NCBI GenBank assembly: GCA_050084515.1
Contig: CM114271.1
Location: forward strand, 38,688,001 to 38,752,000
Source: Blasia pusilla
Lineage: Eukaryota
Length of the DNA stretch: 64,000 nt
Reading direction: 5' to 3'
Shown here: in pieces, positions 4,841 through 46,366 of the stretch
How positions within the stretch are numbered: position 1 is the first letter of the stretch
Layout: each line of letters begins with the position of its first letter
Made by a program: the position numbers and the translations under genes
Notes under the pieces: generated by a model
What the model saw: only the letters and a program-made list of their open reading frames with translations
The model's database searches: none
Told to the model about the DNA's origin: nothing

Positions 4841-7103
4841 AACCAATTCTCTTCATGTATTTGGTTGATATCTTATAAGTCCACAAATGGTTGGTGGAGT
4901 GAAGAATTATGCACTTCGTGATATTACAAATTTACCTCTTAACTTGCAGCATGTAGAAGTACCCCCTAGTCCTTTGATTCTAATATCCCCAAGGTACGGT
5001 AACCAAGTTCATGTAATCTCTTTTTACAGTTGGCTTTTGTGAGGGTTTTGCATTGCATTTTTACCCAAGTATTTAACAATATGTTGGCCTTATTGTACAG
5101 ACTTCCTGTTCCAAGAAATCCTTCAGATTTATGCGATTAGCGAAAGGTACTTCACGCCAAGGCGCAAAAACGAAATTGAGCAATTCGTGCTCAAAAGTTA
5201 GGAGATCGGAGAAAATGACAACCCCCGGTTCATTCAACCATCTCCCACGTATGTTTTGCCTACGGACCATATATTGCACTTTGAATTATAATCCCTTCTA
5301 GCCTTTTTTGGCCTACTCAAGCAAATTCGTGGTGTCTCAAACTAACTTTGTTCCATGCTAAGTGATTGATAGACTTATTATTTCATCAAATCCAACTTCT
5401 TTTCATGAATTTCAAAAGGTGTTATGTGGGGATGCCCAGAAATAAAAACTAATTCTATGTGTAAAGAGTTTACCACTGAAAAAACAAAAAAATGCAATTT
5501 ATCATTGAGATTACGAAAGAAGAAGGGAAGTTCAAGGCGGAAGCCGTCACAATCTCTGTGACGATGGAACTACTATGCTAGACCTAAGTTCTTCCTCCAT
5601 GATTAATGATAAAACATGGTATGTATTTTCTCACGTTTGCTATATCATACATACGATGCATATTCCAAGGAAATTTTTATGATGCTATTCTAACTTTTTG
5701 TTTACAGACCCGTGACTCATGAGGGGATTATAGACATTCCCAATATAACATGTAACATTCCTATTATGGAGGATATCTGTGTACCTCGAGATGGACAACC
5801 TATGAATAATTCGATGACCATATGGAGGACATATCTATTCAACAAGATAATGACATTATAGTCGTCGAGCAAGTATCTTCCGCATCTCATGGATTAACTC
5901 TCCCAATTGAGAGAGCTCAATCACCGAGTCATATTTGTGTACGTGAAGATGGTCAACCTATGAATAATGCTACAACTATTATTTAGGACATATCTATTCA
6001 ACAAGATGACGAGGTTATCAATAATATCTCCACACTTAATACATTCGAGGTATCTACTCATGTAACGCCTAGAGTTGTCAAGCAAGTACCTTATGTATAT
6101 CATGGATTAAATATCCCAACCGAGATTTCTCAATCACCGATTCATAATGTTAGACGAGTTTCAAGAGTTAACACGTCACTCAATGTTGCACGAATTCGGA
6201 ACTTCCAAGAGAGCGATATAATGAAGTTAAGACTACGAACAAGTATCAACCAAGTAACTTGGCGTCATACTATTGGTTCTATGATAGAAATATGCCTTTA
6301 ATGCTATGCCCTACATTGGAAGTGTGAAAGGGTGAAGAGTACAAGGTATCAAAACTCGCCGTTGTAATCACGGAAAAGTACAACTCCCATTCTTAAGGTA
6401 TTCTTCTCCTTTCTTGAAATCGTTGATTTCTAGTGTTGGAGCTCAAAGTCTTCGTTTTCTTTCACACACTCAAGCTTATAATTATGCTCTTCAGTAAGCA
6501 TCTATTGGATCTCAAGTCAAGGAGCACGTTGTTGGCACTAGACACTTTCATATTCAAGGTGGAATTTATCACAACATCAGCCCATTTCATCTAGATGAGG
6601 GGAGTAATCCCCAATTTGCTCAATGATACATCTATGACACTCAAAATGAATTGGAAAATCGAGGAAGAGTTATGTATGATGATCTTCGACCAGATATCTT
6701 AAGAGGGTTGCAAGATATGTTACATGAACATAATTCCTATGTGAGGATATTTCCACACATTGCAAATGAGGCAAGTGAACCTAATCTTCGTATCATTCTA
6801 ATGGCGCATAATCAAGGGATGGATTCCAAACGTTATAGCTTACCAACCGTATCCAATGTTGCTGCAATCTTACCTGGTGATGGCAATAAACATCTTAACC
6901 CACGTGATATTATTGTCCAATTACATGGTGGAGGAGTTCGTCATATTTCAGATTTAAATGAAGCGTATGATCCATTGCATTTTGTTCTATTATTTATCTT
7001 GGATGAAGCAAGATGGCATCTAAGAATATTTCTTGGGAGATTTGAAGAAACCACAATTGCCAATATTCCTACTACCGTTGTCGTAAAGTAAAATCAGCCA
7101 GTG

Positions 7104-8355
7104 TGTAAAACTCCTTCCTCGTTAAATGTTAGATAGAGTTTTATTAGTATTAAGTAAATTATCTTAGATAAAAGAAATTCCCATGTTTAAAACTCTTTAT
7201 GTGCCTCTTTTAGCAGGCCCATACTAGGAAAAGACGTAATAAATAAAAGATGACTTTATAAAAGTAAAGTAGTGAGGTTGGTGCTTTAATGGAAAAACAA
7301 AAGTAGTCTTGGTTGGTGGCTATGTTAGTTGGGGTAATTTGGAAAATATCAAGTGGGTAAAAGAGGATATTTTGGAAGAGATAAGAGGAAATCTACTTGT
7401 GTCAAAATGTGATTGGCTAAGCCTTGAGAGGAAGCCATATGGCATAAGATAAGATTAGCTCTATTTCGTACTCTTGTGGATCACTTGTGAGTATATAAAG
7501 AGGAGGGACCTTCAAGGGTTCAACACCTTCTATTCCACATCTTGAGTCTCTCGTGTTACTCTTGAGTGTATGGCTTTAGGATTGCTTGCTCTTCTAATGA
7601 GAATGGATCAACCCTCTTGGGAGAGTAATTTGACCATGGTCTATTCTTCGAGAGATTTCTAGAGTGTGGTGTGTGTGTGGAGATGAGAGGTTTTTCACCT
7701 TAGAGGAGTTTAGTCATACTAAAATAGGGAATGTTTTGGCTTGTTATTTTCCCAATGAGAGTGGATTATTCCTCTTGCGAGAATAATTCCGCCAAAACTC
7801 ATTCTTGAGGAGAGTAGAGAATGTCTGTCAAGCATAGATAGGGGTGGAGCACGAGTTGTGCCCGAATTTCCTTTCCTCAATCCATGCCATGTCAAGGTAC
7901 TCTTTGTAGATAGGCATTGGTTCACTCGCTATTTAATTTATTACTTTGGGGAGGCGTTCATTAACCAGGTCATTCAATCTCAAACTCCGGTGATCCTTCC
8001 TATCGTCACATATGGAAGGACATGGGATTGTAGTTTGTATGTCCTTATATAGCAATCTATGGACGTCAATAGGCCTGCTCAAGTAGGATTTAATAATAGT
8101 TATGCTATCTTCCTCGTGTACATGCGTAAAGTAGTTTATAGGGATTTTATAGTTAGGAATTTCTGGGTCCGATGTTACGAAGAAGTGATCGCTTCGACAC
8201 TTTCATTTGTGATACCTGTTGTGAGAGAATGGAGAGTATACATAATTATTTTGTATTGAAAAAGGAGAACTTCTTAGAGAGTTCATCTTGCATCGACCAC
8301 GTCTGTTGCAGCTAGAAGCCCTGCCCTTACTCGAAGAAAGGCTCTCGACACGACA
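7104..8355 (+). mobile_element. probable solo LTR (~1.25 kb) inserted in the Helitron A coding region
   Basis: TG...CA ends, near-TSD CAGTG/CCGTG (4 of 5 match) and TATATAAA near 7492. Removing it gives a continuous frame (NQPV|HGDMEGFDDC) that is colinear with Helitron B. Confidence 0.6.
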
Positions 8356-10503
8356 CCGTGCATGGAGACATGGAAGGATTCGATGATTGTGTAGAGGAAG
8401 AAAGAATTAATGATGAGATTTCTCATGAAGGAAGGAGAAAAACTGTTATAACGCTATAATTTGCCCCTTTTTGACTTCAAACCCGTGTCAGTACCGAAGA
8501 CGATAAATATTTGCTTCAATTTGGTCTTTTTACTCAAGAATACATGGTTGATATGTATGCTACAATAGAGATGCAAAGGCTATATTGGGTTTGATTAAAT
8601 CAAAAGAAGGTGCAAGCAGAACTATATCAAGGTCTAAAGGATGTCATGTATCAAAGTGACAGAGATGGTGCAAGGTTTGGGAGGCGCATTGTTTTGCCTT
8701 CTTCTTTTAGTGGAGGTCCACGCCATATGCATCAACTTTATCAAGATGCAATCGCCCTTTTAAGGCACCATGGGAAACCGGATTACTTTCTAACAATGAC
8801 AAGCAATCCTAAATGGGACCACATCAACACTATTACCTGATCAACAACCTACTGATAGACCAGATTTGATTGTGCGAGTTTTTGAGAAAAAAAGGATAGT
8901 TATTAAGGCCTATTCTCGAGAAGCATATATTGGGAAAGGTTGTTAGTTGCATTCATGTGGTTGAATTCCGAAAAATAGGTTTACCACATGTACATATTTT
9001 GATTATTCTTGATCATGAGGATAAGTCATGCTCAACATCCGATTATGATGATATAATATTTGATGAGATCCCTAATCTAAACATTCATCCCAGATTTCAT
9101 TCTACACTAGCTAATTGCATGGTTCATGGCCCATGTGGACAACTCAATCCAAATGCTCCATGCATGGATAAGGAAAGCAAGAAGTGTACCAAAGGCTATC
9201 CTAAGTCTTATCGTATGGGATGAGGCACCGATAACTCATCGCCATGCATTTGAGGATGTAAATCAATCCTTTCAAGATATCATGGGAGTGGTATCAGAAG
9301 ACTTGAGGAATGTTCCGTTCGGTGGCAAATTAATGATCTTTGGTGGGGATTTTTGCCAAGTGTTACCTGTTGTTCGTCATGGAGACCGTCCAAAAATTAT
9401 TCAAGCTACATTAAAGAGAGGTCATATTTATGATCTCATGTGAGGGTAATGAATCTTACAACGAATATGAGAGTTGAAAATTTGGAAATGAACATGCGTG
9501 TACAACAACAAGCTTTTGCAGATTGGCTATTGGAGGTTGGAGAGGGTTGTGTGCCTTCCGAATCTCACTTAGGAGAGGATTTTATACGATTTTCAAATGA
9601 TATGGTGACCAAGAGTAAGAAGATAAGTGATCTTATTAACATCATCTATGGAAATGATTATGAAAATTTTCGTGACATCAACTTTTTGAGAGATACAACA
9701 ATTCTTACACCAAAAAATCGATATGTTGATGACATCAATGCAAAAGTGATGTCTCGATTCTATGGAGAGGTAATATTATTTTTCAAATAATTTTCATGTT
9801 ATTTTCTTCATAAGTACTTGGATCATATTATGCATCAAAACTAAAATCATCTTCTAAGGTATGTTTGTTCTCTGCAGGAACGTACTTATCTTAGTATTGA
9901 TTCTGTTCCGAATGAGGGAATGAGTTATATCTATCCGACATAATTCTTAAGTACCTACTTACCATCACGTTTTCCACCACATCGTTTAAGCTTGAAAATT
10001 GATGCACCTATAATGCTTTTACGAAACTTGAACGGTTCAAAGGGACAAGCCAATGAAACTCGATTGGTTATCCGTGGATTTTTGCAACATATTATTGATG
10101 TCAAAATTATCACATATAAGAACATTAGAGATTGAGTCTTTATTCCACGAATTCCATTGATTGCATCATACTCGGATTTACCTTTTGATTTAATTTTCTT
10201 ATTCGTCTTGCTTTTACCATGATTGTCAATAAATCTCAAAACCAAAATTTGAAAAATATAAGAATTTATCTACCTACTTCAATATTATCTATGATCAATT
10301 ATATATAATATTATCTAAAATAAGAATTATCTAAAAATGCACTCACAGGAAATGCAATACTTCAATGAAATAAATTACGCGTGGCACGGATAAGAGTCTC
10401 ACGTGGACAACCGAAGAAAAAAAGAGCGCGAAAGATCTTAAAATTACATCCTCCTCGTAATATATCCTCGGGACCTCAACGTCTCCCATATCTTCCACTT
10501 GAA

Positions 10504-10531: not shown

Positions 10532-12553
10532 TGTAAGAGGGAATACAAAAGATGCAAATAGGCAAGAAGGAATCAATTTTTCTGATCTGATTTTTAAATA
10601 TTTATTTTATCCAAAAATTTCTTTATACAATACATTCCGTGTATAGTCTCCTTCCTTATTTGAATGTTCATCGCTTCCAATTGTAATGTGGATAGAACTT
10701 CTCTTCCCTACTCTAGATAATGCTACATACAATTGGCCATGAGAAAATACTAGAGTAGGCAAGTAAATGCACACCTTTTGCAAAGTTTGACCTTGGGACT
10801 TATTGATAGTCATAGCAAAATCCGGTCGAATAGAGAATGGAAACCTACGTAAATCAAATGGCAAACCTGAATCTGATGCAATCAATGGGATATGTGGAAC
10901 AAAAATTTGATCTCCAATATTCTTCCCTGTGATAATTTCAACATCTATTCAATGTTGCATAAATCCACAAATCACCAATCTTGTCCCATTTGCTTGTCCA
11001 TGTGCTCCATTCATATTTCGTAAGAACATGATTGGTGCCCCAATCTTCAAACACAATCGGTGCGGAGGAAGTCCTGAAAGCAAGCATGTGTTCAAAAATT
11101 CAGTTGGATATATATGAGTCACCCCTTGTTTGGAATAGAGACGATTTGAGGTAAACTTGCTCAGACACAAAATATAATGAGTTTGTAAGAAAAGGTAATA
11201 TTAATATCCAAACTTGTAATTGAATAACTCTTTTATAAAAGTTAAAGGGATTACCTCTCCTGGAAACCGTGATATTACGCTTGCATTTATGTCATCTACA
11301 TCTTGATTTCTCAGAGTCAAAATTTCCGTATCTCTCAAGAAATCAATGTAATTGAATTCGGATGGAAAATTTCCACATATCTAATCAATAAGATCTCATA
11401 TCTTATTACTTCTAGCAACAATTTTAGATGGTAATTGTATAAATTCTTCTCCCAAATGTGGATGCAAAGGTACACGACCCTCTCCCACTTCTAATAACCA
11501 ATGAGCAAAAGCTTGTTGTTCACTATGTAAGTGACCTTCCAACCTCTGAACTCGTATGTTTGTAGTCAACTTCATTAGACCAAAGAGATGACCTCTTTAT
11601 GGTGGCTTTGATGATTTGCGGCCGATCCCCATGACGAACAACAGGCAACACTTAACGAAAATCACAACCAAATACCATAAGTTTTCCACCAAATGGTAAT
11701 TGTCGGTGTTCATAAGAAACAACTCCCATAATATCTTGTAAAGTTCGATTTACAACCTCAAATGTGTGACGATGAGCCATAAGAGCTTCGTCCCATATAA
11801 TAAGCATTGCATCACGGATTAAACGAGCTCCATCACTATTAACCGATAAACTACAATAAGAAAAGGGGAGTAAATTAGAACTTGTGCCACCAAAATTGGA
11901 GGAAGTTAAAATTTGTGCATCACCAAAATTGGCACTTACTTGCAAGTAGAGCTCTCATGAGGATTGATGGGGATTTTGAATTGCGAATGTGGAGTATGTC
12001 CTCCATCTAACAATAGAGCAGCTATTACTCATGATTCCACAGCCAGAGCTATACCTCTTGCACTCCTTACACTTGCAAGAAGAAGATTATATAAAATATT
12101 TTTCCCGTTCCACTTGGGCCATCGATGAATTTTTTTTGGAGATGGTGGAGCATCTAAGCATATTTTATCAAGCTCATCATGTATAGCATCCCAAATAATA
12201 CGTTGTCCTTTATTTAGACATGCTTCTCCCAATTTCACTTGCTCAAATAGTTCTTCTGTATCATACAATAGCTCTTCTTCGTCCAAATATGAATTTGATT
12301 GAAGTCGTTGGAAGTCAGGTTGGGGCATGTCTGGAAAGTCAGAAAATCTTTTTCTTTAATCTTGTAAATAATAATGGACTTCCAACAATGATGTATTAAC
12401 CATAGCATCTTCAACGGGAAGATTAGGAATTCCAATTTTCTACAAAATAGGATGATAATCCAAAATTGGTTAGATTGTTGAATGCTCAATAGAAGATACT
12501 ATTAGGAATGAAAAAAATGATGCAAGGATATTAATAAATTCTTACCAGACGCA

Positions 12554-13136
12554 TGTCGTGCGAATCCACATCGTCATACAACATACATCGTTGAAATACC
12601 ATACTCACATACATACAGAATATAGACGAGAGCATCCAAAAACACAAGTGTACCACAACTGAAATCCGTGAAAGACCTACTGTCATAAAACACGTATAGA
12701 ATCACATACAATCGAGCCAAACCCACTCCACGATGGGAGAATCCAGGTCGAAGCTTGCGGGAACCACCATAGCCAAGAGCTCTACTCACTACCAAGGCTA
12801 ACTCCCAACGCAACAGGCTCAACTCAAAGAACTAACGGTTCTTTGAGTGCACTCCACACTATATCCTCCAACCTAAGAGCGGGCCCTACTGGAAAAGTCA
12901 CCCTCAACTGAGTAACCCCCAACCCTATGTATGAAACCGCATCTCTACCTAGACATTACGGCCCTACATAAGGTATGGCCTCTACTAGCACACTATACTC
13001 AACGGCATAATCCGTATGGTCATGACAGCTGTCGTGCGAATCCACATCGTCATACAACATACATCGCTGACATACCATACTCACATACATACATAACATC
13101 GACAAGAGCATCCACAAACACAAGTGTACCAAAACT
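12554..13136 (-). repeat. composite 3' terminal repeat of DNMT-gypsy copy 1 (plus order A1-B1-gc-A2)
   Basis: The 107-bp A segment occurs twice (12554-12660 and 13030-13136). The 366-bp B segment (12662-13027) recurs at 21993-22358. The internal junction reads CATGACA-GC-TGTCGTG. Confidence 0.92.
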
Positions 13137-13137
13137 T

Positions 13138-13147
13138 GCCCCCCTAA
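13138..13147 (-). promoter_or_regulatory. putative polypurine tract of DNMT-gypsy copy 1
   Basis: Minus strand TTAGGGGGGC lies immediately before segment A. The same motif is at the same position in copy 2 (33582-33590). Confidence 0.7.
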
Positions 13148-13308
13148 CTGGCGGTTAGGTTCCTCTAACTCCCAGGTATCCCTATACATCTACTACATGC
13201 TATACACCTTCATGGATGCACGAATCAGAAGGCTGGGTGCTAGGTTGACCCATCGTTAGTCGCACATCTGTAATCCATATCATGCAAAGATCAAGTAATC
13301 TACCTCTC

Positions 13309-14690
13309 CTAAGTACATCGAAGACAAACCCACCTTCCAGTAGGAACAAAATCCATACGTGGAGTCAAACACATCATGTGCCAACCCCTAGAACACCGAT
13401 CATACACCAACATACGGGCTACGTTTCTAGCAGACCCACACAACATGCACCTCAAACTAGCACGTATTATGGCTAAGCTTGGGTCAACAGTACCATCCAC
13501 ATTTGGAAGATGACATGACGCACAATTACGCACATGGTCCTTCCAAACAACTCCATCACAACCCTCCAACATGAGAACTCCAGAAGCTAACACCTCTCAC
13601 ACTCGTAAAATAGTGCGGCCTGCCATCACATCCAACGTTGTTAGTGCAATCTTCTGCAAATAGACATAGTCCCCCACATGGAACTTACAAATCGATGGTC
13701 GATAACCTCCATCCCGAATGGTTGCATACCGCAACGTATCCCTGTGTTGAGCAATGGCAAGATTCTCAAAGATTGTTGGCATAACTCTCCGAAAGAGCTT
13801 TGCACGTTGAGAACACACTTTCATCCACGTCTATGGGTCATCAAGGTTCACCACCTTACTAGACTCCCGATGAATTGCTACTAGCAAGTCTGGATCTTGG
13901 CCGTATAACAGAAAATAAGGTGAGAAGGAAGCCAAGGATGCTTGGCGACTGAACCTATACCCCATGGCTAACCATGGCAAGTGAATATCCCAATCTCCAA
14001 GATGCCCCTTCTGTAGGACATACTTGCGCAATGCCCTCTTCACCATTTGAACCACACGCTCAGCCAAACCATCCGCCTCTGGATGATCTCGAGACATGGT
14101 CCGATGATCAATCAACACCTTGTCACACAAGACCTAAAACTCACCCTCAAACTTTGTACCCTGGTTGATCAACACTTTAGCTGGTGCACCAAAATGACTA
14201 AGCACTCTATCAAGAAACGCATACGCCGTTCCCTCACTTGCCATGTCCGGTAATGCCACCAACTCAATCCACTTGGAGAAGTGCTCCACCATCACCAACA
14301 CATATCGATGATGTCGTACAGTCAACGGCAACGGTCCCCCAAAGTCCACACTCCAACGGTAACCCAACCCCATAATAGGCAAGGGGTGTAAATGTGGTGT
14401 AGGGGCATTGAATGATGCCCTCACCCGGTCACAAACCATACAATGTGACACCAATTTCTGCACCTCAGTATGCATGCCACGCCACCAATACTGACCAAGG
14501 AGTAAGCTATACGTACGCTTTACCCCAAAATGTTCCAACTCCTCATGGGCATGTCACACAATGCGCTCTCTTTGAGCCAAATGCGGCACTACTTGTACTC
14601 TACCATCCTCCCACACACGGAGAATATGTGTTCCCTCCAATCGATACCTCTTAGCACCTTGAAGAACACGGTCTCGCTCCTTGGCGCTCA
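13309..14690 (-). pseudogene. gypsy integrase with C-terminal PHD finger (copy 1)
   Basis: H-H-C-C zinc motif (HFGVKRT...CMVC), WSVDFGGP, VEHFSKW, NQGTKF, HPEADGLAERVVQ, then CMLC...YDRC..GWHMMCL...GRWVCLRCT. Confidence 0.9.
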
Positions 14691-14965
14691 CTATGCCTGG
14701 CACCCTTCTTGTCCGTAGGAACTCCAACACCAACGCATCATCATGAATATCATGCTGACCGTCCCATCATCTCCAACCTTAGGATCTGAAGGCTGGCCAT
14801 CTACCCTCTGACTAGAGTAAGATGTCATGTGGTCCTCCATACTAGAGTCCATCCCTAACCAACATAAAAAGGCAGATGCATGCCAACCTGGCACCATCTC
14901 CTCATCAACCTTGCCATGCCATCTAGCCCTAGTTGCATCCTCTTGGCTAGTACATGGGTTCCTAC

Positions 14966-16435
14966 TCAACCCATCAGCATCAAGGTTGGCAACTCCAGGT
15001 CTATGTACCACCTGGAAGTCATACTCCTGTAAGATAAGACCCCTGCAAGCTTCCCTGTAAGCTTGTCAGACTCCATCAACCACTTGAGCGGCTGGTGATC
15101 AGTAACAAGGGTAAACTGTGTGCCAAACAAGTAACACCTAAAGTCTGCCACAACCCACACTACTGCCAAGCACTCTCCCTCATATGAACTATAGCGCGAC
15201 TCCGTTGCATTATTCGAACGACTTGCATAGGCCACCACAAACTCCATGTGCTCATCATCATGTTGTGTCAACACCGCTCCAAGTCCCAACCTACTCCAAT
15301 CAGTGTGTAATTGAAATGGGCGCCCTCTGATAGGTCTCCTCAAGATAGGCGCAGTCACCAACTGGGCCTTGAGCTCCACTAAAGCTCTCTCCTGATCATC
15401 TCCCCGGTGCCACTCCTGATCTGATTTCAGCAATTGGTTCAAAGGCTTTGCCATAGCACTAAATCCCTTCACATACCTCCGATAGTAGTTCGCCAATCCC
15501 ATGAATGCCCGAACTCTACTCACATCTACCGGAAGAGGAATAAGTGCAATAGCCTCCTCCACCTTTGCTTGCTGAACTCCCAAACCACCTGGATAGATCA
15601 CATGACCCAAGTACTCAACATCCTCATGGAAGAACTTACACTTTCCAAGATGCAAACGTAGACCATGAGCTTTCAACCGCTTAAACACAATATGCAAATG
15701 TATATGATGCTCCTCCACCGTGTTACTGAACACCAAGATATCATCAATGTAACACCAAAAAAAATTCAATCCTGCTAGGATCATGTCCATCACTCTCTGA
15801 AACTCGACAGGTGCATTCTTCAACCCAAAGGGTAAGAATTTCCATTGGTACAAAAAATCCTTGCCATGAGAGTTGACACCCCAAAATGATGTCTTGGCTT
15901 TGTCACTCTCTCGAATTGGCAACTGATGGTATCCTGCCCGAAGATCCAAAGTACTGAAAATCTTTGCTTGTCCCACCACATCAAAGATCTCCTCAAGTGT
16001 AGGCATGGCATACCTATCGGCCTTGGTCTGCCGATTGATAGGGCGGTAATCTCCACACATCCTGCTAAAAAGGATGTGCATGTAGTTGCCATGCACATCC
16101 TTTTTAGCAGGCGTGACAGTGGCTGATGCATACTCTCCATGCGACAACTCCACTAATCGAGCCTCCAAAAGGTCCAACGTCCTACTCTGAATCATGTCCC
16201 TCTCCATATCACTATATCGGTAGGGACGACGGAAGATTGGCGAATCACTAGCCAAATCAATCCGTATACCGGGTCCAACCAAAGCACCCAACTCCTTCAT
16301 GCTAAAGGCAAAATAACTCCTATAAGCACGTATGAATTGTGTCAAACGTCGTTTCTCACCTCCCCTAAGCTTGGGCCCAAGTAATGGCTCCCAAGTCTCC
16401 TCTACTGGTACACTAGAGGGAGAGGACGACGCCAT
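14966..16435 (-). pseudogene. gypsy reverse transcriptase and RNase H (copy 1)
   Basis: RMCGDYRPIN, STLDLRAGYHQ, LPFGLKNAP, CYIDDILVFS, YLGHVI, FMGLANYYRRYV, LHTDWS, VAYASR, YEGECLAVVW, VTDHQPL. Confidence 0.95.
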
Positions 16436-16689
16436 TGGCCCCTATGCAACCCCCTCACAAGATGGTACACCCTTAGCTACACCATCATCTGAGCAAATAA
16501 CTCCTCCACTAGCATGAGCAACCAACTCTACATGCCCAGCCATTACATCCCATTTACTCCAAGGATGCAAAATACTATTCTCCTCGCCCCTAGCCGATGT
16601 CTCTACCATCCCGGTAGCCATTGAGCTCATCATAAGGGGTGGAAGACCCATAGACATAGTCCAAAGTCGACGTTGCTTGGCCATACCAA

Positions 16690-17650
16690 GACTCAAAATC
16701 CAGGTCAAACAATTCAGGTCCATGGCCTGACCCAACGCATGATGTCGTGAAGCCTCACAAATGGAAGCAACCGTTGTCACACCAGTAGCTAATCCTATCG
16801 CACGCTCTCTCTCATCAGCGTTAGGCTCCACCAACTGTTGCACATGAGAATCCCATACAAGCCCGGGACCACCTTCCCTGTAGGCATGTGACGAGGGAAA
16901 ACTTACAAATGTGGGTAGTTCCATCCTAGGCTCGCCCACACGGTTCACTACTGCCATGGGTGACCGATCAATAACCCTCACCACCTGAGAAAGTCGCCCA
17001 ATATCCAAGATACTATACACTGTAAGGCAAGGATCCCACTGCACTGCATCATATGCTCGACGTAGAACCTCCCTAGGCAACAAGTTTGTCCAACACAAGC
17101 GTGGATGATGTGCACACGAGCCAACTCGCGCTGCATCCAACAACACCGCTAGTCCAATCCAAGACCGCATCTCATGAACACTTGCCATCATCCGGGTCCG
17201 AGTGTCACCCAACAATGAAACATTCTCCAGAATGTAAGATGAAGTACGTGCTTGATGAACCTAAAGATGTCATAACACCCGTAACATCTCCCAAAACAAT
17301 CGAAACCTAGGGTCATGTAATCCCTCACCACGAAGAGCACGTGTATGACCCTGACATGGCCATCCAACAATCACCAAATCCACAGGACAAACCCTCTCAA
17401 GGTCCTGCGCCCCCAACAATGCAATGTGTGACGGCAAAGCACGTTGGTACCCACGAATAGCTGATGGAGGAAACAACTCAGGATATCTCCGCATCAACTG
17501 ACGAATATGTTGGGATGAGACTCTCTGGGCCATCTCATCTTGCTCTATATCTCCGCACAGGAATACCGGCCTGCAACATTGCAGCCAAACCATTGCTAAT
17601 CCCACCAAAGAGATCAAACACACAAATGCCCTCTGGTGGATACTGCCATA
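16690..17650 (-). pseudogene. C5-cytosine DNA methyltransferase domain (DNMT3-like) inside pol, copy 1
   Basis: Motifs in canonical order: I VFDLFGGISNGL, IV DLVIVGWPCQGH, V GLHDPRFRLFWEMLRVL, VI YIL(ENV) across a frameshift, VIII SCAHHPRLCWTNL, IX ERERAIGLATGVT, X RHHALGQAMDLNCL. Confidence 0.9.
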
Positions 17651-18099
17651 CAATGGGTGTAGTATCCAAAGGGGATAACCCAATTGGACCAGAAGTAGGA
17701 GTCCGCCGTGGGGCCTCCTCTTCCTTGTGAGGTATAACAGTCTCACACCAAGCCTCATGCACTAGGCGATCAGCCTCTTGCCGTAGTGCACCGCATGAAC
17801 ACCAAAGTGGCACATCCAACGATGAGGATACCATTGCTGCAAAACTAGGGACCTCCTCTACCTCCTCATGCACAAGAGAATCCATAGCAGAAAGATTACC
17901 CTCCAAAGAGTCTCCTGGCCAAGTGACTACTCCACAAAAACCATCCACAGATGCTAACACCGTCGCGGGAAGCCTTCCTGGTCGATACCCATAAATACAT
18001 CTCGCAGGAACCTGGCTCATACGTCCATCCCCGGACTGCCAACCAGGTCTATAAGACGATGTCTAAGTCCAGTAGTCCATCTGAAAACCCATCGGGTAC

Positions 18100-18400
18100 A
18101 ATACTGCTCCTCCAACTAGTACATCATACGACTCGGGTGACGTGACCATTGCAGGTACTGCCAACTGGGAGCTATCAATTGCATGATCTGGTCTCAACTA
18201 TACATAAAACTTCTCCCGTGTCATGTATTGAGTCCTATCATTGGCTCCTCCAAGTGATGTTTGAATCTGGAATGGGCAAGGCTCAAAGCTGTGACCTCCG
18301 AATACCCAAACCAATACATGTCGCCTTTCCGAACATCAAAGGTTGGGCACCAGGGTCTAACAAGACTCTATCTGGTCTATACACCTATCATGTAGGACTC
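18100..18400 (-). pseudogene. aspartic protease (copy 1)
   Basis: My translation of 18325-18370 gives RVLLDPGAQPLMFGK. Copy 2 has LVDSGAQPLMLG at the equivalent position. Confidence 0.75.
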
Positions 18401-18848
18401 ACCAATTGGAATATCCCACTCCGGTTGTCCAACATACATACACCAGGTGTAAGCCTCTCACGATCAATGGCTGGCCGGGCTGGTAATGCATCCATCTTCG
18501 CCGTTGCTGCCTGCCAAGTAGCAATGGTACTCAATGCTACACCTGACATAGAGGGTCGCTCCACCGCAACACCCTCATCCACCTCAGCACCTGTAGCAGT
18601 AACACCCCACGTTCACATAACGTGGCTGGTAGCTGAAATACATGAGCTAAGTCAACTACTAAAGCCATTAGCTCCGTGGCCAAAAATAATGGGGATCCCA
18701 ACACTGAAGTTGCCATCCGCAATACTGCACTGGATGGTGCATCCGTATCTACTACACGCGATGTAGATGCCCTAGTCCCCACTGTAGGCTCAATAGGCTG
18801 TGTAGGAACCATGGATGGAGTCCTAAGCACCTCAGACAACAAGAATGA

Positions 18849-20495
18849 CTAGGGAAGCCTAACCTGCCTCCCAACCTCACCCCTCTGTGGATCCAACTCC
18901 ACAGTAGCACCACGTGGCTCTGACGCTCGAGTGGCTCCTCTCGTAACTGCAGATGATGCCTCAACATGTGCTACACTCGCCATATAAGAGAGATCATCCC
19001 CTCCATAAGAGGTGGAAGCCCCTGCTCCCGAACTTGCTCTATGCTGGATACCAGCCATAGTAGCCAACTTCTGCTCCAACTGCTCAATTTTGGCAGCCAG
19101 AGCTAACTCTATCGTAGTGATAGGGGTAGCCAACGTAGGCTCTCCAACCAATGGTCCATCTCTACCATCCCTACCACCTTGGCCTCTTGGAGCTACTCCA
19201 CCACGGCCGCGGCCTGATCTCAACTCTGGATGAAGATCAAAGCAGCGCTCTCGAGGATGACCTGGTCTCCCGCAATGATCACATTGAGTTGGGGCCAAAT
19301 GAGGCCCATCCTCCAAAGTCCGTCTCCCATCCTCTTGGGGGAAAAACCTCCTAACATGATCACCTCCACATGTCCAACATGATTGTCCTTGCTGCGGGGC
19401 AGCAAATGAAGGCAATGGTCTCTGGGCAAGTGTCCCTCTAGGACCTAAATGAGGTCGTGTGTACCCCCCACAACTCCCACTACTACTACTACCACCACTA
19501 CTACGAGACTGTGAGGTGGAGTGCTAAACACGAGAAGTAGTAGTTGTATCCCTACTGAATGCGGATGCCACCACTCTCTCCTCCACAATGTTAAGCTCAA
19601 TCTTGTCAAATAGAGCAAACATATGGGTCAATGTGGGTGAATCATCACTCATAAGAGTAGCATCACGTACCCTACGGCGCAATTCTCTGTCCAAGATCCC
19701 ATACCAAAATTGGAGTGCATGAGCCTCACTCACACCATGGGTAAGTGAAATCAAGCGTCGCATACGAGTGTATGCCTCACGAAGACTCTCACCAGTCTTT
19801 CGCTCAAATTCCTGAAGACTCCTCAACTTCTCTATCTTCACTCCCTGATAGTTCTTCTTCAACCTCTTGAAGAACTCTGCAACCGGGCTGAACGATGGTG
19901 GGGCACTAGTACCTCCACTAGTACCCCCACTGGTACCTCCACTAGTACCCCCACTCCAGCTCGTACTTGTACCACTCAACGTCGGGCTGGCTGGAATAGT
20001 AGGAGCACTACTACCAATACCACAATGGGTGATAGACACATAGCCTGGAGACCAATGTTGTCTACACGCCTCAATCTCAGCAACATGGTCCTTCCTAAAC
20101 TCATGGTTATCGTCCATGGATGGTCCCTCCAAGTGCTGAAACGACCCCTTCCAAGCCAAGAAGGGTGTAAACAATGTGGCGTTCCGCAACATCTGCATAT
20201 CATACCACGTATCAAACTCCTGAATGAAGTCCTCCAACTCAATGGTGCCCACTGCACCCGAGTATCGTCGTGGGCCCTTCATGGCCCCATATATCCCGTC
20301 CATGTTCCAACTCAATGGAGCTGCAACACTCGATAACAACGTAGAAGACTCGATGTTTGGAACACCCTTGTCCTCCTCTTCATCAACCTTCGAAAGTGGA
20401 AAAGGTAGCCGATACCTCAATCCACTCCATGTAAAACCACCATTGTCCGCACCACGGTCCCCAACCAGACCAACAGACAGCTCTGTGATGACCAA
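18849..20495 (-). pseudogene. gag with two zinc knuckles (copy 1)
   Basis: Retrotransposon gag-like GESLREAYTRMRRL...QFWYGILDRELRRRV, followed by CWTCGGDHVRRF and CDHCGRPGHPRERC. A 12-bp tandem repeat encodes (SGGT)n at about 19906-19955. Confidence 0.85.
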
Positions 20496-21992
20496 CGCCG
20501 ATGCCGTACCACCACCAAATCACCACCACTAAGTAATCGAGTGACGTCGATGTCGCTATACTAGCTCTACTAGCTATGGGTGTAGGCAACCTAACCTGTC
20601 ATCACCACAAGAAGCCTCCGGCGGTCTATTGGTCATCACTCCGGCCTCACTATTGGTAGCACACATGAGTAAAACTACTCTGGAAATCAATGTCAACCCT
20701 AAAAATGGGCGCGCAAGCAAGAAGCAACGATGGAGGGGATCCAAACATATGAAGTCCAACGACAACCCTCCAATCGCAAATGGAAATCAAGCTAACAAAA
20801 TCCACCAAACATGGCGCCCCCTGAATCCACAGAACCCACCACAAAATTCTAATGCAATAGCTACTCCGCCGTTAGTCGATGACTTGCTAGTCGCACTCGC
20901 AGCCCTTAAAAATATCACCTGCATGGAGAGGCTACACCGTACTATGCGTTAGAGGTCCATCAACCAAAAACTCGAGATGCATAAAGCGCCTAACACATCT
21001 CCGAACAACACCAAATGAGCTACACCAGTGTGTACACTGGCATAGTTAAGAACTCAGCAGTTAAACGTCTTCCAGGCAGAATAGCCCAAAGATGGGTGAC
21101 CAATTATGCAACACTTAACTCACAAATCCTGCAAAAACTGCCTCATACCCAAGCAAGCAAGCAAGCTTGCTTGCTCCTTGCTCCTTACTCCGCCTCTCAC
21201 CCCCACTCGCCCCGAGCTACCACGAGTTGCCTCGAATCCTCAAAACGCTGAGACATGCCACGTTTGCCATGCTTCACTATGGAGAGAGGCCCAACCAAGG
21301 CGCCCCCAGCGGGATAGGCGTCTCCAACAACAGACGAATCACCAACCAACCAGCCCCTCCGATTTGTTGTCCACCATAGCCAGACCTTGAGCTAGTGCGC
21401 AAAATTTTGATCAGCAATTACTCCACAAATCCTCAACCAAGATTGAATTTTTTTCAACTTAAATTCAATTGGCCACCATATCTATCTCTCCACAAAAAAT
21501 CAGCTACAACCGAGCCCTGTACTTTGAGCTAAAAATCAGACAAACTTGATGTCCATACACCTCCAGAATCACAAATCCGACAGGGCTTCCGCCCAGATTC
21601 ATGCACACAGAAATCCGCAACGCTCCACACACTCAAGCAGATAGCTTCACATGAGATCACAATACAAGTAGTAACATGAACCTCTCACCCAATCTGGATG
21701 AACTTCAACAGTGCTTCTGCACTCCAAGCTCTCCACATCAGAAAACCGTTGAACACGAACCAGAATCTTCAATCCTTGATAACTTCCAACTCCCTTAACA
21801 AAATCCGACGATCTAAAGCGCGTTGGAAAGCTCTCAGCAAGGCGCTTTTTTCCCACACAACCACACCAGATTCACACCTCCAACATAGGCCACAAGCCAC
21901 GAACATCCACGGCTGAGTACACAATCAGCCCTAACCAGATCCTACTGATCCACGATCGAAGCTACCATCGATCTACTCTAGTTCTTTGAGTT

Positions 21993-22358
21993 AAATGCAT
22001 CAAAGACATACTATCATAAAACACGTATAGAATCACATACAATCGAGCCAAACTGACTCTACGATGGGAGAATCCAGGTCGAAGCTTACTGGAACGACCA
22101 TAGCCAAGAGCTCTACTCACTACCAAGGCTAACTCCCAACGCAACAGGCTCAACTCAAAGAACTAACGGTTCTTTGAGTGCACTCCACACTATATCCTCC
22201 AACCTAAGAGCGGGCCCTACTCGAAGAGTCACCCTCAATTGAGTAACCCCCAATCCTATGTATGAAATCGCATCTCTACCTAGACATTACCGCCCTACAT
22301 AAGGTATGGCCTCTACTAGCACACTCTACTCTACGACATAATCCGTATGGTCATGACA
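21993..22358 (-). repeat. 5' terminal repeat (segment B only) of DNMT-gypsy copy 1
   Basis: Matches 12662-13027 over 366 bp and lacks segment A. It contains a TATA-like motif (22191-22195) and an 11-bp hairpin (22153-22179). Confidence 0.92.
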
Positions 22359-23801
22359 TACGGTTCATATAAGAGATCTTCTACTAGTGGAAGCAAGAAT
22401 TTATTCCAAAGTGTTGCAGTTTGAGCATGTGTGTTGTACGATATAATAATTGCAAATAAGCGACAAAGTAAAGAACCTATACGAATTGTAGTAGCTTCTT
22501 CAAAGCAAGAGAACACTTCCCTATCATCCTCAAGAAGTCCCAATTGGATAGAAGCCTCCTTGAATGTTGGACATAATACCCCATTAACAATTCTCTAACA
22601 TTCATACGTAGTTGCTCCTCGAACATGATGGAGAAGTAATCTCAACCAATGATGTTCTCCTTCACCTATGAGGAATTAAACTAAATGAGTTTATCCCAAC
22701 ATATAGATACATCGCTTTAGAGGTGGAATATAAAAGAAAGAAGTTGTGAGCATTTACTTGGATGAGTAAGGTATAAGCGACCAATGGGATGGCCACAACC
22801 ATTTTGTTTTTGTACCCTACGAATCCATCTCTTGTTACTCCAACGATAATAAGAAGGAAAATCTATGTATAGATGTTTTCCAGCACTAGAGTCAGATAGA
22901 TTGGTTGCAAACCATTGGGTCAATATTGTCTATCTTTTTAGTTGCAAAATATCTCCAAGAGAGACAACATCATTGAAGTAGACTAATTGTTGTTCCGGAA
23001 GATGGACTGCTAGTTGTACGATGCTTGGAAGTTCAACATGTAGACTAAACTTAAAGAGACGCCAACATGCCTCCGAAGAAAAAATATATTTGGAATAATG
23101 AGAATACCAAATATTTGAGTACGGACAATCACATGAAGTTGAGAAGTAAAATATAATGCATCAGAGAAGTCAATCCATAAAATCATACCTCGCATCAAGA
23201 TATGATGTTGTCTCGTCAATAACTTCAATTACATTGGATGTATCCATATCCTTTGACAACTTAAATGACACAGCAGCAGATCCTTTATAAACATATTTGT
23301 ATAAGTACTTGACAGCAGAAACACTACTTGTAATCTCCAAATTAATGTGACAATCAAATAGGATGCATAACATCGGATCGTAAGGTACAACCCAACGATT
23401 ATCCAATGAATGTTCGCTCTTAATTATTGCCCTTCAATTCTCCAATCTACAAAAACACAATAACAATCGTAATTAATCATGAATGAATGTATTAGAAGGA
23501 ATCATGAATACATATGCCTTAAAAATAAAAGGGTCCTTACCTACGATATATCGTATAACCATCTTTTGTTTGGGTAGTGTTGGACGCAAAAGCTTAAGGA
23601 TAGCCTTTTGTACATTTTTTTGTTTCCTTATCCATACACGGAGCATTTGGATTTAATGGTCCATATGGTCCGTGAACCATGCAATTAGTAACGGTAGAAT
23701 ATAACCTTGGATGGGTAGATTGATCAGGGATTGTAGCTGAAATGATACGATCATAATCAATTTTGGTACGTGGTTTATCCTCATAACCTAGAACAATAAG
23801 G

Positions 23802-24442
23802 TGTCGTGCGCATACACATCGCTACACAACATACATCGCTGTCACCGAACACACACACAAACACGCATGATCCCATGCTAACTCATGGCATCCAAACAAC
23901 GAGACAAGAAGAACCAAAATATCTCCAATAAAGTAAGATCCAATCTCTCTCTCCACCATCTCACACCATAGCTCTCAAAGGTGTGCACTATCTCTCATGT
24001 CAAACCAAACCCACTCTCCTAATGAGAGGTTTGGGTTACACTCACAAGGCAAGGTACCATAGCTCCGCCGCCTCATGCCAAGAGGTTCAACAAAGAGAGA
24101 ATGAGCTCTCAAGCTCTCTCTCCTTGAGGTATACCCCTCTCCTCTCCCAAGCTCTCTCCATGGTAACCTATTCTCCCAAGTCATCTCCTTGGCTCTTGAC
24201 CTGATGTAGGAGGTCAAGGGCCACTTACCAAAAATAGTAAGTCAATCATATACTCAAAATGGTACTTATCTAAAATAGTAAATTCCTCAATATGGCTCCA
24301 AATGAGCCGAAACGAAGGGGAAACCTGTTATCTCAGGTTTCAAGGGCCTCGATGAGGTCACCTCGACCTCATCGGGCGTGTCCTCCACTACTCATGAAGG
24401 CGCTTTATTAGATCCCACCGATCTATCCTAAAAGACGTGACA
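23802..24442 (-). mobile_element. solo terminal repeat of the DNMT-gypsy copy-2 family
   Basis: 641 bp, near-identical to 32810-33450, with TG...CA ends and an exact 4-bp TSD AAGG (23798-23801 and 24443-24446). It splits the Helitron codons GLPHVHVL|IVLG. Confidence 0.95.
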
Positions 24443-27400
24443 AAGGACATGCACATGCGGTAATCCTCTTTTTTGGAATTCCACCACATGGATGCATCCT
24501 ACAACTCGGCCTAATATCTGCTTCTTGATGATAAGTCGTAACAACTGCTTCTTTTTCTTCGCAAAAACCCGCACGACCAAATCTGGTCGGTCTGCAGTTG
24601 ATTGGCCAGGTAATAGGGCTGATGTAATCTTCTCCTACTTTGGATTGCATGTCATGGTTAAGAAGTAGTTAGGCTTCCCAAAATGTCGTACAATTGTCAT
24701 TGCATCATGATATAATTGATGCATATGACGTGGCCCTCCAGTAAAAGAAGAAGGTAATATAATGCGTTTCCCAAGCCTTCGGCTATCCGCATCTTGTCGA
24801 TGCATGGCATCCTTTACCCCTTGACATAATTCAGCCCTAAACTCCTTCTGATTTAAGCGTATCCATGATAATCATTGCATTTCCACAGTGGCATAGAGGT
24901 CAGCGATATATTCTTGAGTAAGTTGACGAAGCCGCAATAAGCGATTGTCATCTTCTCCTCCAACCCGCGTTTGAAGTCGAAAACATGCAAATTGCAAGGC
25001 CATAATACATTTTGTTCTTCTTTCCTCAACAATATCACCATAAACTATGTCCTCATCCATGCAATCATCTGAAGGTTCAGGATGTCCCTCCTCTCCATGA
25101 ATAATATGGCCCAATCATCACGATTCTCTACAACCTTCAATTCGCCCAAAGGGTATTCCAAGACGCCAACCTGCTTCACCATAGATAAATAACAAAACAA
25201 AGTGTAAGGGAATATATGCTTTGTTGAGGTCGGATATACGTTTGACTCCTCCTCCATGTAGTCGTATATTTATATCACGATGCTCAACGTGTTCACTTCC
25301 ATCACTCGGCAAAATAGCAGCAACTTCAGAAGCAATTGGTAAGTTATAGCGCTTTGCATCAAGACCTCTCTTACTTGCCTTGAGAATAATCCACATATTA
25401 AGATCACTTGCTGCATATGGCATATGATGAAAGATCTTCACATATGGATTGCATTCATGTAACATGTCTTGGAGACCTTTCAAAATATCCATATTAAGAT
25501 TAGAAGATGTAGACATAACTCTAACACGATTTTCCAATTCATTTGTAGTATCATGGATGTATAGTTGAGCAAATTGGGGATGTCCCCCTATATTAGGATG
25601 TAAAGGTCCAATGGAATGATAAATCCTGCCTTGGACCCTAAAGTGTCCAGTATCACCAATTTTTTCGTTTACATGTACCCCAGTAGATGCAAGTTGAAGT
25701 GCCGAATTATAAGCTCGAGCATGTATAAGAAAATGAACGCTTCTAGGACCAACACCCGAAATCAAGGATTTCAGAAATGGAGGAGATGATCTCAAGAGAG
25801 GTAAGTATATTCTTCCATGGCCACAACACATGCCATATGGTGAGTCACCAAATTTAGTACCTTTGACCACTTCACATTTCCAATACAAACATATCTCTGT
25901 CATAGAACCTAATGTATGATGACCGCTGATATGATTCAAACTCCTTTGTAATCGTAACTTATGAATATCACTTTCTTGAAAATTTGGCCTCCTTGCAAGA
26001 TTGAGTAATGTATTTAATCTTAAAACTCTATATCAAGGGTAGACGACGCACAAATTATAGAAGTATTTGGTATAGTGGCACGTTGTGGAGATAACAAAAC
26101 TTCATTAGGAGACATGGCATCTACTCTTGACCTTGATTCATCCCCAAGTTGGGCAAAAGTCGACGAATTGCTGGAAACTTCATCTTGAACAGGAATAAGA
26201 AGAGTGGTCGACAAATTGTTGATAAATCCATCTTGAACTCGAATAGGAAGAGCGGCTGAAGAATTTTTGACAACTTCATCTTGAATTGGAATAGGAGGAG
26301 TGGTAGGTAACTCAACTTGTGGTGGCCCAATCGTGGATGTATTCTCGATAACTTCATGAAATGCACTTTCAACTAACTCGAGTCTTGGCGATATATAAAT
26401 ATAGTCCGTTGATTGTTCGCTCACTTCTTGATTTTCTTCTACTATTATTCCATCCTTATTGGAAGGCTTGAGAAAATATGTCAAAATATGGATAAGAATA
26501 AATAAAAATCAAATATGGAGTAAATCAAGTAGTTATGAAGTGAATCAAATATAAAAAGTTAGATATAGGTACCTATTCAATGGAATATGTGCAATACTCT
26601 CAGGTTGAACTTGACCATTAAGCCCTTTCCTTCTTTTTCTATACTCTCCATAGTAATTCCTCTTTTTTTCTCTGAGAGCTTCCATTCTATCAGCTCGAAT
26701 AGCACGCTTTTGTTTTTGGGCTTCACCACGTAGAACTTTCCGAAAGTCACGTATATTGACAGGATTCAATGGGATTGGAAGTTTGGAACAACACATGAAT
26801 GTTAAAAGATTACGAAATCAAATGAAAAGTCAATATTTTGTGGGGTGGGAAATTGGACATGCTAAATGAGTGTCGATGTAGTAAACTTACGTTGGAGATG
26901 TTTTAGGTCAGAGTTCATCTTCAAGATGTGTTTGTTGTGCTAAGATTTCCTTGCGACAGACACGCTTTTTTTTTTTGTGCATTCGCACGCATCAATTTTC
27001 GGAAGCCACGCAAATCCGTAGGATTCGATGGAAGAGGAAGTCTATGCAACAATTGGGTTTATTGCATGAGAAAAATATATTGTCGAGAAAATGGTATGTA
27101 AGGCATCATGATTGAAATGGAAATAAGGTGCTTACTTCCTTACCCTAAGCAAAGGTTCTTACATCGGGGAGGTATTCTTCGATACTTCAATATGTCTTCC
27201 CGAACTTTGTTGTGAAATTGGCATATTTGTAATAATACCAAGTGGTCGTCTCTCCCTGTTTAGTGACAATCCGCCAACACTCACCATCTACATGACACAT
27301 AATGGAAGTATTGAGAATTGAAATAAAATGACCAAAAGAATAAATAATAAAAAGAAAAAAAAAGAAAAGAGAAGAAAAGAAAATAGGAGAGAAGAGAAGG

Positions 27401-30631: not shown

Positions 30632-30946
30632 TCAGCAGTCGTTGTGAGAAAAATGGGGAGTGTGTAATTAGTAAGAGGGAATAAATAAGGGTGAAGTTTG
30701 AATTCACAACCCTCGCAGTCACAACTTCTCGACAAATGAGAAGCCAATCTCATCGGACGACGCTGGTTTGAAGGATCCAAACCGTCAAGGACAAAAGGAC
30801 AAGAATTTGAAACAAAAGTTGCGGCCTAAAATGAAACCCTAAGTCCGTCGCACGTGCTAGGTCGGCTTCAGACGCACGAAAATTCCATGTTCGTAAAAAA
30901 AACTGTTACACGAGGCTATGAACAAAACCCTAAAACAGACTGCTTG

Positions 30947-46352: not shown

Positions 46353-46364
46353 GCTCTGATACCA
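46353..46364 (-). promoter_or_regulatory. primer-binding site (tRNA-Met) of the chromovirus
   Basis: TGGTATCAGAGC lies two bases after the LTR end at 46367. Confidence 0.92.
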
Positions 46365-46366
46365 CG

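Follow-up and report, generated by a model that had tools for sequence, protein, structure and literature searches.

Introduction

In the charophyte alga Klebsormidium nitens, the gypsy element KnitGypsy-Dnmt3 is described as carrying a Dnmt3 domain within Pol (de Mendoza et al., 2018; PMC5890265), and the legend of Fig. 4c in that report gives it DIRS-type repeats together with gypsy domains (PMC5890265). In land plants, self-priming was predicted for the Tcn1 clade of mosses and club mosses (PMC6317226), and SM-Tcn1 was reported to have 440-bp long terminal repeats (LTRs) with TG..CA ends and a 5-bp target duplication (PMC2864245). Here we describe two diverged Ty3/gypsy copies with split direct repeats, W1 (12554-22358) and W2 (32810-42324), which lie on the minus strand of a 64,000-nucleotide stretch of the bryophyte Blasia pusilla (GenBank assembly GCA_050084515.1, contig CM114271.1, positions 38,688,001 to 38,752,000); this whole stretch is referred to as the window. 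In these elements the ends defined by reverse transcription and the ends used for integration are circularly permuted relative to each other.

Split repeats of the two copies

The sense direction of all copies is the minus strand, and coordinates are quoted in sense. The long repeat is designated L and the short repeat S (B and A, respectively, in a preliminary description made from the window sequence alone). Self-BLAST showed the window to be a nest of retroelements, and its reverse transcriptase (RT) proteins are closest to those of liverworts (Calypogeia fissa, 79%; Marchantia; Riccia), followed by the charophytes Klebsormidium and Closterium. W1 and W2 are ~74% alike, in pol only, and their L segments do not align. 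They share the sense order L - primer site - gag/DNMT/RT/RNaseH/integrase/PHD - polypurine tract - S - 2 bp - L - S (DNMT, DNA methyltransferase), the primer site being deleted from the 5′ end of W2 itself (Table 1). The preliminary description had read this permuted arrangement in both copies, and all the features it named lie within 1-2 bases of where it placed them. It had also pointed out that the G run adjoins S and not the TG terminus; this is the case in W1 and W2, and the tract is conserved in relatives.

Table 1. Features of the two split-repeat copies and of a solo unit in the window (L5 and L3, 5′ and 3′ L; S1 and S2, internal and terminal S; ORF, open reading frame).
Copy	Feature	Position	Strand	Basis or remark
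W1	Whole element, L-primer site-internal-polypurine tract-S-GC-L-S	12554-22358	minus	Self-BLAST, sequence, paralogous empty site; TG..CA ends
W1	5′ L (L5)	21993-22358	minus	94.5% identical to 12662-13027; alignment with 16 relatives
W1	Self-primer sequence TAGTTCTTTGAGTT, putative RNA 5′ end	22152-22165	minus	Perfect complement (14 nt) of the positions that directly follow the 5′ L
W1	Primer-binding site, self-priming type, AACTCAAAGAACTA	21979-21992	minus	Complementarity; position directly after the 5′ L conserved in relatives
W1	gag-like ORF	19524-20519	minus	Retrotrans_gag 17.6 bits, below cut-off
W1	C5 DNA methyltransferase remnant	17195-17383	minus	PF00145 18.7 bits (cut-off 22); PCQ and ENV motifs visible
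W1	Reverse transcriptase and RNase H	14966-16441	minus	RVT_1 111 bits, RT_RNaseH 104 bits
W1	Integrase (H2C2 zinc domain and DDE core)	14089-14577	minus	PF17921 50.5 bits, rve 33-37 bits
W1	PHD finger, integrase C-terminus	13315-13449	minus	PF00628 26-27 bits, cut-off 24
W1	Polypurine tract AGGGGGGCA	13137-13145	minus	Directly upstream of S1; tract and flank conserved in all relatives and W2
W1	Internal S (S1), putative start of RT-defined U3, ending ..GACA	13030-13136	minus	Self-BLAST and sequence
W1	Spacer GC	13028-13029	minus	Sequence
W1	Candidate attachment site (att), back-to-back integration ends GACA-GC-TGTC	13024-13033	minus	Sequence
W1	3′ L (L3)	12661-13027	minus	Self-BLAST and sequence
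W1	Terminal S (S2)	12554-12660	minus	Joint with L3 at 12660/12661, U5 end on U3 start
W2	Whole element, same layout as W1	32810-42324	minus	Nested in the chromodomain of another gypsy element
W2	5′ L (L5)	41894-42324	minus	Last 81 bp of U5 and primer site deleted
W2	Polypurine tract (33581-33590) and internal S (33453-33580)	33453-33590	minus	Sequence
W2	Spacer AC	33451-33452	minus	Sequence
W2	Full 3′ L (L3)	32938-33450	minus	Includes 81-bp U5 end 32938-33018 and self-primer sequence CTCATTCTCTCTTTG at 33099-33113
W2	Terminal S (S2)	32810-32937	minus	100% identical to internal S
W2 family	Solo L-S unit	23802-24442	minus	TG..CA ends, perfect 4-bp duplication CCTT

Self-priming and the LTR defined by reverse transcription

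A primer site of the transfer RNA (tRNA) type after the 5′ L was considered and rejected: the sequence directly following L is not tRNA-like, and its complement is a segment midway along L. In W1, whose 5′ L contains, besides the self-primer sequence and an upstream primer-site copy, a TATA-like box, the pairing is perfect over 14 nt. Among 17 aligned 5′ L sequences, a 12-nt self-primer segment is kept in 14, and in 12 of these 14 at least 10 of the 12 positions are Watson-Crick complementary to the site after L. In the relative L019 the pairing is preserved via two double (compensatory) changes. In minimum-energy folds of the stretch from segment to site, the self-primer segment pairs with the primer site (14/14 positions in W1), and a TATA-like box lies ~30 nt upstream of the segment. 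Judging from the complementarity, its conservation, and the compensatory changes, with the transcript start placed by the TATA-like box, the primer site is a self-primer of the Tf1 type. The preliminary description had let the 5′ L of W1 end exactly at a candidate primer site; this is correct, the site being a self-primer that directly follows the 5′ L. W2 has lost both the last 81 bp of its 5′ L and the site.

Because of this deletion, no self-primer match of at least 8 nt was found in the leader of W2 itself. In 39 DNA contigs and 38 RNA reads that represent other copies of the W2 family in the same species, the 81 bp found after L in the 3′ unit are continued by the complement of CTCATTCTCTCTTTG, which indicates that this family self-primes with its own, different primer pair and that the 81 bp are the normal U5 end. 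An inherited insert between L and S2, as which the 81 bp of W2 and of the solo unit had also been considered, was rejected, since the reads show an ordinary U5 end and then the primer site.

A second copy of the primer site lies in L just upstream of the putative transcript start (22152-22185, and at the same place in relatives), and together with the self-primer segment it folds into a short hairpin (CTCAAAGAAC-loop-GTTCTTTGAG). This copy would be transcribed in the 3′ L only.

At the other end of the interior, GGAAGTTAGAGGGACCTAACC..AGCTAGGGGGGCG stands immediately before S; no other non-coding stretch of the lineage is as well conserved as this block, and even W2 has retained it. In ordinary LTR elements, the unique 3′ region (U3) starts after the polypurine tract, and the unique 5′ region (U5) ends before the primer site. 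Because the tract adjoins S and the self-primer site adjoins the 5′ L, the LTR made by RT should be S-nn-L, as the preliminary description had proposed. Its U3 should then consist of S, nn, and the first half of L, while the second half of L should be the repeat region (R) and U5.

Sense-strand RNA of the W2 family was detected in RNA reads of the same species (runs X22 and X23). Its depth over 32600-42500 drops about five-fold between ~36900 and 37200, from ~60-110 on the 3′ side to ~10-30 on the 5′ side; 3′ bias, a transcript that is shorter, or diverged copies that map unequally could each account for this.

Distribution of the layout among relatives

An RT-based scan of metagenome contigs yielded 76 related loci, on which the L and S blocks were mapped. 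Loci with identical flanks, as judged by eye, were merged to count independent copies, and four loci in which S is cut short (L014, L025, L064, and L076) were left out. The full form, ending in polypurine tract-S-nn-L-S, is present in 13 independent copies, namely W1, W2, and 11 metagenome loci (L016, L018, L019, L026, L031, L033, L034, L043, L056, L061, and L069), a count that includes the incomplete copies L033 (cut by the contig end), L019 (S2 truncated), and L018 (S1 partly deleted). All 19 independent 5′ ends consist of a single L and then the primer site. A canonical 5′ end, with S upstream of L, was found at none of the 19, so that the tally of canonical against permuted copies agrees with the arrangement given in the preliminary description. 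Searches of the other strand of the loci found no further copies or solo units.

The split layout is a trait of the lineage, because it recurs in 11 further independent metagenome loci, three of which have perfect 4-bp duplications; this recurrence excludes chance or misassembly as its source. The window is a nest of retroelements, and the chromovirus next to W2 has a partial tandem LTR duplication, so one might think of nested insertions, unequal recombination, or misassembly of ordinary LTR elements as the origin of the layout. We consider such a secondary origin very improbable. The layout is found at 13 independent sites with their own target duplications, in at least two families and several metagenomes; the repeats differ by 1-14%, which excludes assembly collapse, and the empty-site allele of W2 described below fits the outer ends exactly. 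In addition, S and L are only 2 bp apart, and there is no separate duplication around the L-S unit.

The full form is not the only one. About 18 independent copies read L-primer site-internal-polypurine tract-S, with unrelated DNA directly after S and without any terminal repeat, and these had not been foreseen in the preliminary description. The two forms are mixed in every clade of the RT tree.

Across subfamilies S is better conserved (80-90%) than L (~72-78%), and it is GT-rich with TGTA/TGTG runs (13030-13136 and 12554-12660 in W1, and in all loci). This conservation hints at a cis function beyond the terminal integrase site, e.g., in 3′-end formation or packaging.

Integration ends, target duplications, and the L|S joint

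Integrated units start with TGTCATGAC in L and finish with CGCACGACA in S, having TGTC...GACA ends. As noted in the preliminary description, these TG and CA ends reappear within the RT-defined LTR, where they stand back to back as CA-nn-TG. All 13 full-form copies have a 2-bp spacer, the letters of which vary (GC, AC, or AT).

The outer boundaries of W2 were confirmed by a joint of 32805 to 42325, skipping 32806-42324. Run X3 provided this joint in one DNA contig and run X23 in two RNA reads; it is the empty site of the host element. W2 is flanked by the 4-bp duplication AGGG (42325-42328 and 32806-32809), and these four letters fit either side of the joint. A paralogous empty site of W1 lies at ~62998-63112. 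Among the units with both ends, 10/14 have perfect 4-bp duplications: four of the five complete full-form copies (AGGG in W2; AAGG, TCTC, and AATC in three metagenome copies), five of the eight complete L-internal-S copies (ATTA, TACA, TACA, ATGC, and TTCA; two others match at three of four positions and one at two of four), and the one solo unit.

The joint between L3 and S2 (L|S) connects the U5 end to the U3 start. In the W1-like family it is exact (TTTTC|AGTTGTGG) in 8 of 11 readable joints (10 loci and W1), and W2 has an exact joint with its own sequence, ACTTT|ATTGGAG. The joints of L016 and L061 show a single-letter difference at a position that is also variable in internal S copies. 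The remaining variants are single-copy, namely an extra G in L056 and a CG with a 17-nt U5-like slip in L026. These extra letters match the end of the polypurine primer, and such variants look like imprecise primer removal. Of the contrast drawn in the preliminary description between a variable joint and a fixed CA-nn-TG, the fixed spacing holds throughout, and the variability of the joint is confined to a few copies. AATTG at the start of S2 in three loci was considered as an S2-specific marker and rejected, since it also occurs in internal S copies.

Within each copy S1 and S2 are as alike as L5 and L3 (self-BLAST: 100% vs. 98.8% in W2, 91% and 94.5% in W1), which means that both pairs are renewed with every cycle. 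Given the positions of the primer site and R, the standard mechanism predicts that the RNA tail beyond L3 is not copied, in which case the joint would be formed by joining two cDNA ends. Templated inheritance would differ on this point: RNA would run from the 5′ L through L3 into the terminal S, L|S would be copied from the parent, and the internal S-nn-L template would restore the missing ends. Such a route would match the A1-internal-B1-A2-B2 layout described for tyrosine-recombinase elements such as PAT and Ngaro (PMC8969392, PMC4157794), would explain why the extra repeats stand on one side only, and fits the finding that some RNA depth reaches S2 (16-20 reads at 32920 vs. ~140 at 33038). 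We nevertheless judge it improbable, because with a primer site after the 5′ L and R within L the minus strand would transfer to L3, and the RNA downstream would never be copied. Moreover, joint variants are copy-specific and not clade-specific, the 81 bp of W2 and the solo unit read as ordinary U5, and AATTG is shared by S1 and S2.

Coding domains and class membership

The Pol domains are ordered as in Ty3/gypsy elements: in W1, W2, and relatives, a single strand carries RVT_1 and RT_RNaseH followed by Integrase_H2C2 and rve, and the TG..CA ends with a short target duplication agree with this class. Two complete LTRs flanking the interior, as in other members of Ty3/gypsy, are not present, since the 5′ end has L only and the 3′ end has S-nn-L-S. 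The elements have the DIRS-type repeat layout, A1-internal-B1-A2-B2, but they make 4-bp target duplications, which DIRS elements do not. The chromodomain that defines chromoviruses is absent, and a PHD finger (PF00628) takes its place at the integrase C-terminus, with 26.9 bits in W1 and 34.9 bits in L026 (10067-10201). Zinc-knuckle-like CX2CX4HX4C strings are visible in the read-through translation of the gag region of W1.

Integrase domains are kept in all copies examined. No tyrosine recombinase domain (PF00589, Phage_integrase) was found at E<=0.01 in the three sense frames of the whole W1 interior, translated with X at stops, and none was found in the ORFs of relatives. On these domain searches we conclude that the elements are not tyrosine-recombinase elements, in agreement with the preliminary description, which had assigned them a DDE integrase. 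Split direct repeats are otherwise known, in the literature seen, only from recombinase elements, so a recombinase supplied in trans by a DIRS-like element might be thought to integrate the copies, with the integrase a mere relic. We regard this as scarcely credible: DIRS elements are described as lacking target duplications (PMC8969392), whereas 4-bp duplications and TG..CA ends are the rule here, and both the retention of integrase domains and the lack of a recombinase domain in W1 speak against it.

Upstream of RT, relatives carry a region homologous to C5 DNA methyltransferases (PF00145, cut-off 22), which scored 36.5 bits in P0042 and, in translations with X at stops, 35.7, 29.1, and 29.0 bits in L029, L036, and L001, respectively. 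The region is present in more than 30 loci and in W2 (e.g., 37167-38032; L029:8859-9734) and is decayed in the window copies. These matches suggest that methyltransferase-bearing gypsy elements occur in bryophytes, beyond Klebsormidium. Judging from the domain matches as a whole, the lineage is a streptophyte Ty3/gypsy lineage with the order gag, C5 DNA methyltransferase, RT, RNase H, DDE integrase, and PHD finger.

Proposed mechanism of integration

The permutation described above leads us to propose that the integration substrate is not the plain linear cDNA but a cDNA whose ends are joined head to tail, either as a two-LTR circle or as an equivalent extended or concatemeric molecule. The element's own integrase would cut one internal CA-nn-TG and insert the permuted molecule, giving L-internal-S-nn-L-S. 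This would be the only form that can be transcribed again into a terminally redundant RNA, with R at both ends, and hence the replication-competent one. Copies of the L-internal-S form would mostly be the result of later deletions, S by S or, from a mirror form (L-S-nn-L-internal-S), L by L; alternatively they would be products of cutting at both sites, and solo L-S units would come from L-by-L recombination. We think that insertion of a permuted, joined-end cDNA by the element's integrase via the internal CA-nn-TG site is probably the correct reading of this anatomy, and a closed two-LTR circle is a plausible vehicle. Retroviral integrases have been reported to cleave the palindromic LTR-LTR junctions of two-LTR circles (PMC1905944, PMC1180852, PMC4372172).

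Several observations weigh against this proposal. Its support is the anatomy of integrated copies, from which the circle or joined-end cDNA has to be deduced, and every copy examined is degenerate. The target duplication of W1 is not recognizable (CGTA vs. TGCG), and the strict 2-bp spacing could reflect only the rarity of indels. The L-internal-S copies (~18) outnumber the full form (13), and the youngest ones roughly match full forms in age. It may thus be that they arise as primary products, made by an integrase that also cuts internal sites on linear or one-LTR forms. In the RT tree the terminal branches are longer in L-internal-S copies than in the full form (medians 0.0755, n=14, and 0.056, n=9; one-sided p=0.025, W1 and W2 left out), but the difference is weak, with a two-sided p of 0.051, or of 0.37 when W1 and W2 are included; the longer branches fit later decay and are compatible with a primary origin too.

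The main difficulty is one-sidedness. A two-LTR circle has two identical CA-nn-TG sites, and the mirror and observed forms are expected from it equally often. The mirror form was seen at none of the 19 independent 5′ ends, as against 13 copies of the observed form. Thus, of the claim in the preliminary description that a circle is opened at an internal att site, the permuted anatomy and the clean U5/U3 joint stand, and the simplest, symmetric version is disfavored. To be tenable, a circle model needs the mirror form to collapse at least ~10 times faster, or one of the two sites to be marked. Having 340-bp repeats only 115 bp apart, the mirror form might collapse fast into L-internal-S, which would explain why the latter is the commonest form.

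Another way out would be a one-sided substrate, such as a linear cDNA with its plus strand extended by a template jump. In this scheme no circle is closed: on reaching the U5 end, RT jumps to the U3 end of the minus strand and goes on extending the plus strand there. The resulting linear cDNA has a third, partial LTR at its right side alone, and integrase uses the TG of the left LTR and the outermost CA on the right. The extended molecule would give L-internal-S-nn-L-S and the unextended cDNA would give L-internal-S. The scheme accounts for the one-sidedness, for the many L-internal-S copies with intact duplications, and for joints that are exact or carry one or two extra letters, as from template jumps. 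No direct evidence speaks for it, however, and the extended end would need to become double-stranded. We see no reason for the jump to be confined to the plus strand, and end-to-end jumping of this kind is to our knowledge not an established part of LTR-element replication. For these reasons we consider the extended linear cDNA rather unlikely, and we retain joined-end cDNA cut at the internal site as the preferred explanation.

A broader interpretation is possible, and we put it forward tentatively: a DDE integrase of the retroviral type would routinely integrate joined-end (circular) cDNA in vivo by cutting a palindromic CA-nn-TG site carried in every LTR, split direct repeats would stem from the way the element replicates rather than from tyrosine recombinases, and the lineage would be a living model of the state that gave rise to DIRS-like elements. 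If this is true, it bears on the origin of DIRS-like elements from LTR elements, in that an LTR element would have integrated from circles before a recombinase replaced its integrase. The family also offers a natural test of an old question of retrovirology, namely whether integrase uses abutted LTR ends in vivo. For annotation, split direct repeats are unsafe as a diagnostic of tyrosine-recombinase retroelements, because they are found here with a DDE integrase, TG..CA ends, and target duplications. LTR-finding pipelines are expected to misplace the ends of full-form copies, pairing L with L and finding no duplication, and to miss L-internal-S copies altogether because these have no terminal repeat.

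Host repeats and other features of the window

The chromovirus that hosts W2 (30946-47995, minus strand) is canonical, with LTRs of ~1030 bp, a polypurine tract, a primer site of the tRNA-Met type (TGGTATCAGAGC), and a 5-bp duplication (CAAGC). Its RT lies at 45018-43807 and its integrase at 43451-43053, and its chromodomain is split by W2. Its LTR termini, TGTCGCGAC...GCGCACGACA, are nearly equal to the termini TGTCATGAC...CGCACGACA of the split-repeat elements. In the 5′ LTR the first ~600 bp are present twice in tandem, and the extra copy (47995-47390, preceding 47389-46791) is 97.5% identical to the 3′ LTR vs. 94.4% to its neighbor.

W1 lies within another repeat (10596-12439 and 22363-23230), and the right end of the window (61150-63993) has a second copy of this repeat, 77-79% alike and without interruption. 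Three inverted matches of 70-82% identity between 6402-9209 and 23590-25786 bracket W1 and the solo unit region; they may belong to a larger element as its arms or result from an inverted duplication.

Comparison with known systems

The core layout was already known in an alga. The novelty that the preliminary description had seen in it does not hold, since the layout is in print for KnitGypsy-Dnmt3 (Fig. 4c legend, PMC5890265). What is added here are the bryophyte members, the self-primer, the permutation of RT-defined against integrase-defined ends, the 4-bp duplications, the repeat-less L-internal-S copies, and the missing mirror form. In the literature searched, which covered few subscription journals, the name KnitGypsy occurred in no other paper, and neither a mechanistic account of split direct repeats in combination with gypsy domains and an integrase nor a report of DNMT-bearing gypsy elements in bryophytes was found.

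As far as its published description goes, KnitGypsy-Dnmt3 resembles the present elements in combining gypsy domains with DIRS-like repeats and in having a C5 DNA methyltransferase in Pol, which in our relatives lies upstream of RT. The RT of the window matches K. nitens proteins at 42-48% identity, while the element itself was compared by description only. It differs in its host, an alga, whereas the hosts here are bryophytes, the best matches being to liverworts (Calypogeia, 79%) and moss-type metagenome contigs, and in its methyltransferase domain, of which the window copies keep only remnants. The text and legend on KnitGypsy-Dnmt3 mention neither a primer site nor a polypurine tract, and they describe no target duplication, structure of the ends, or mechanism (PMC5890265). 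Methyltransferase-bearing gypsy elements would thus be extended from a charophyte alga to bryophytes.

Among self-priming elements, Tf1/sushi and the plant Tcn1 elements likewise have, as described, a primer site complementary to the start of their own RNA and not to a tRNA. Unlike the present elements, with permuted LTRs and a PHD finger at the integrase end, they are described as having ordinary LTRs and a chromodomain. PAT, Ngaro, and TOC elements of the DIRS order share the A1-internal-B1-A2-B2 layout but, according to the descriptions seen, use a tyrosine recombinase and make no duplication, in contrast to the DDE integrase, TG..CA ends, 4-bp duplications, and gypsy-type RT/RNase H found here.

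The two-LTR circle junction of retroviruses, as described for foamy virus and HIV-1, is similar to the CA-nn-TG site in presenting abutted CA..TG ends as an internal substrate to an integrase of the retroviral type. In those accounts, however, the junction consists of joined cDNA ends and belongs to a side path, whereas CA-nn-TG is here inherited in every LTR, and the joined cDNA ends would be the separate L|S junction. Bacterial IS3 and IS30 elements form circle junctions in which the element ends are abutted with a short fixed spacer and cut together, which reminds us of the 2-bp spacing of CA-nn-TG. These are DNA transposons without reverse transcription, and we draw the parallel as an analogy only, claiming no homology beyond the DDE fold.

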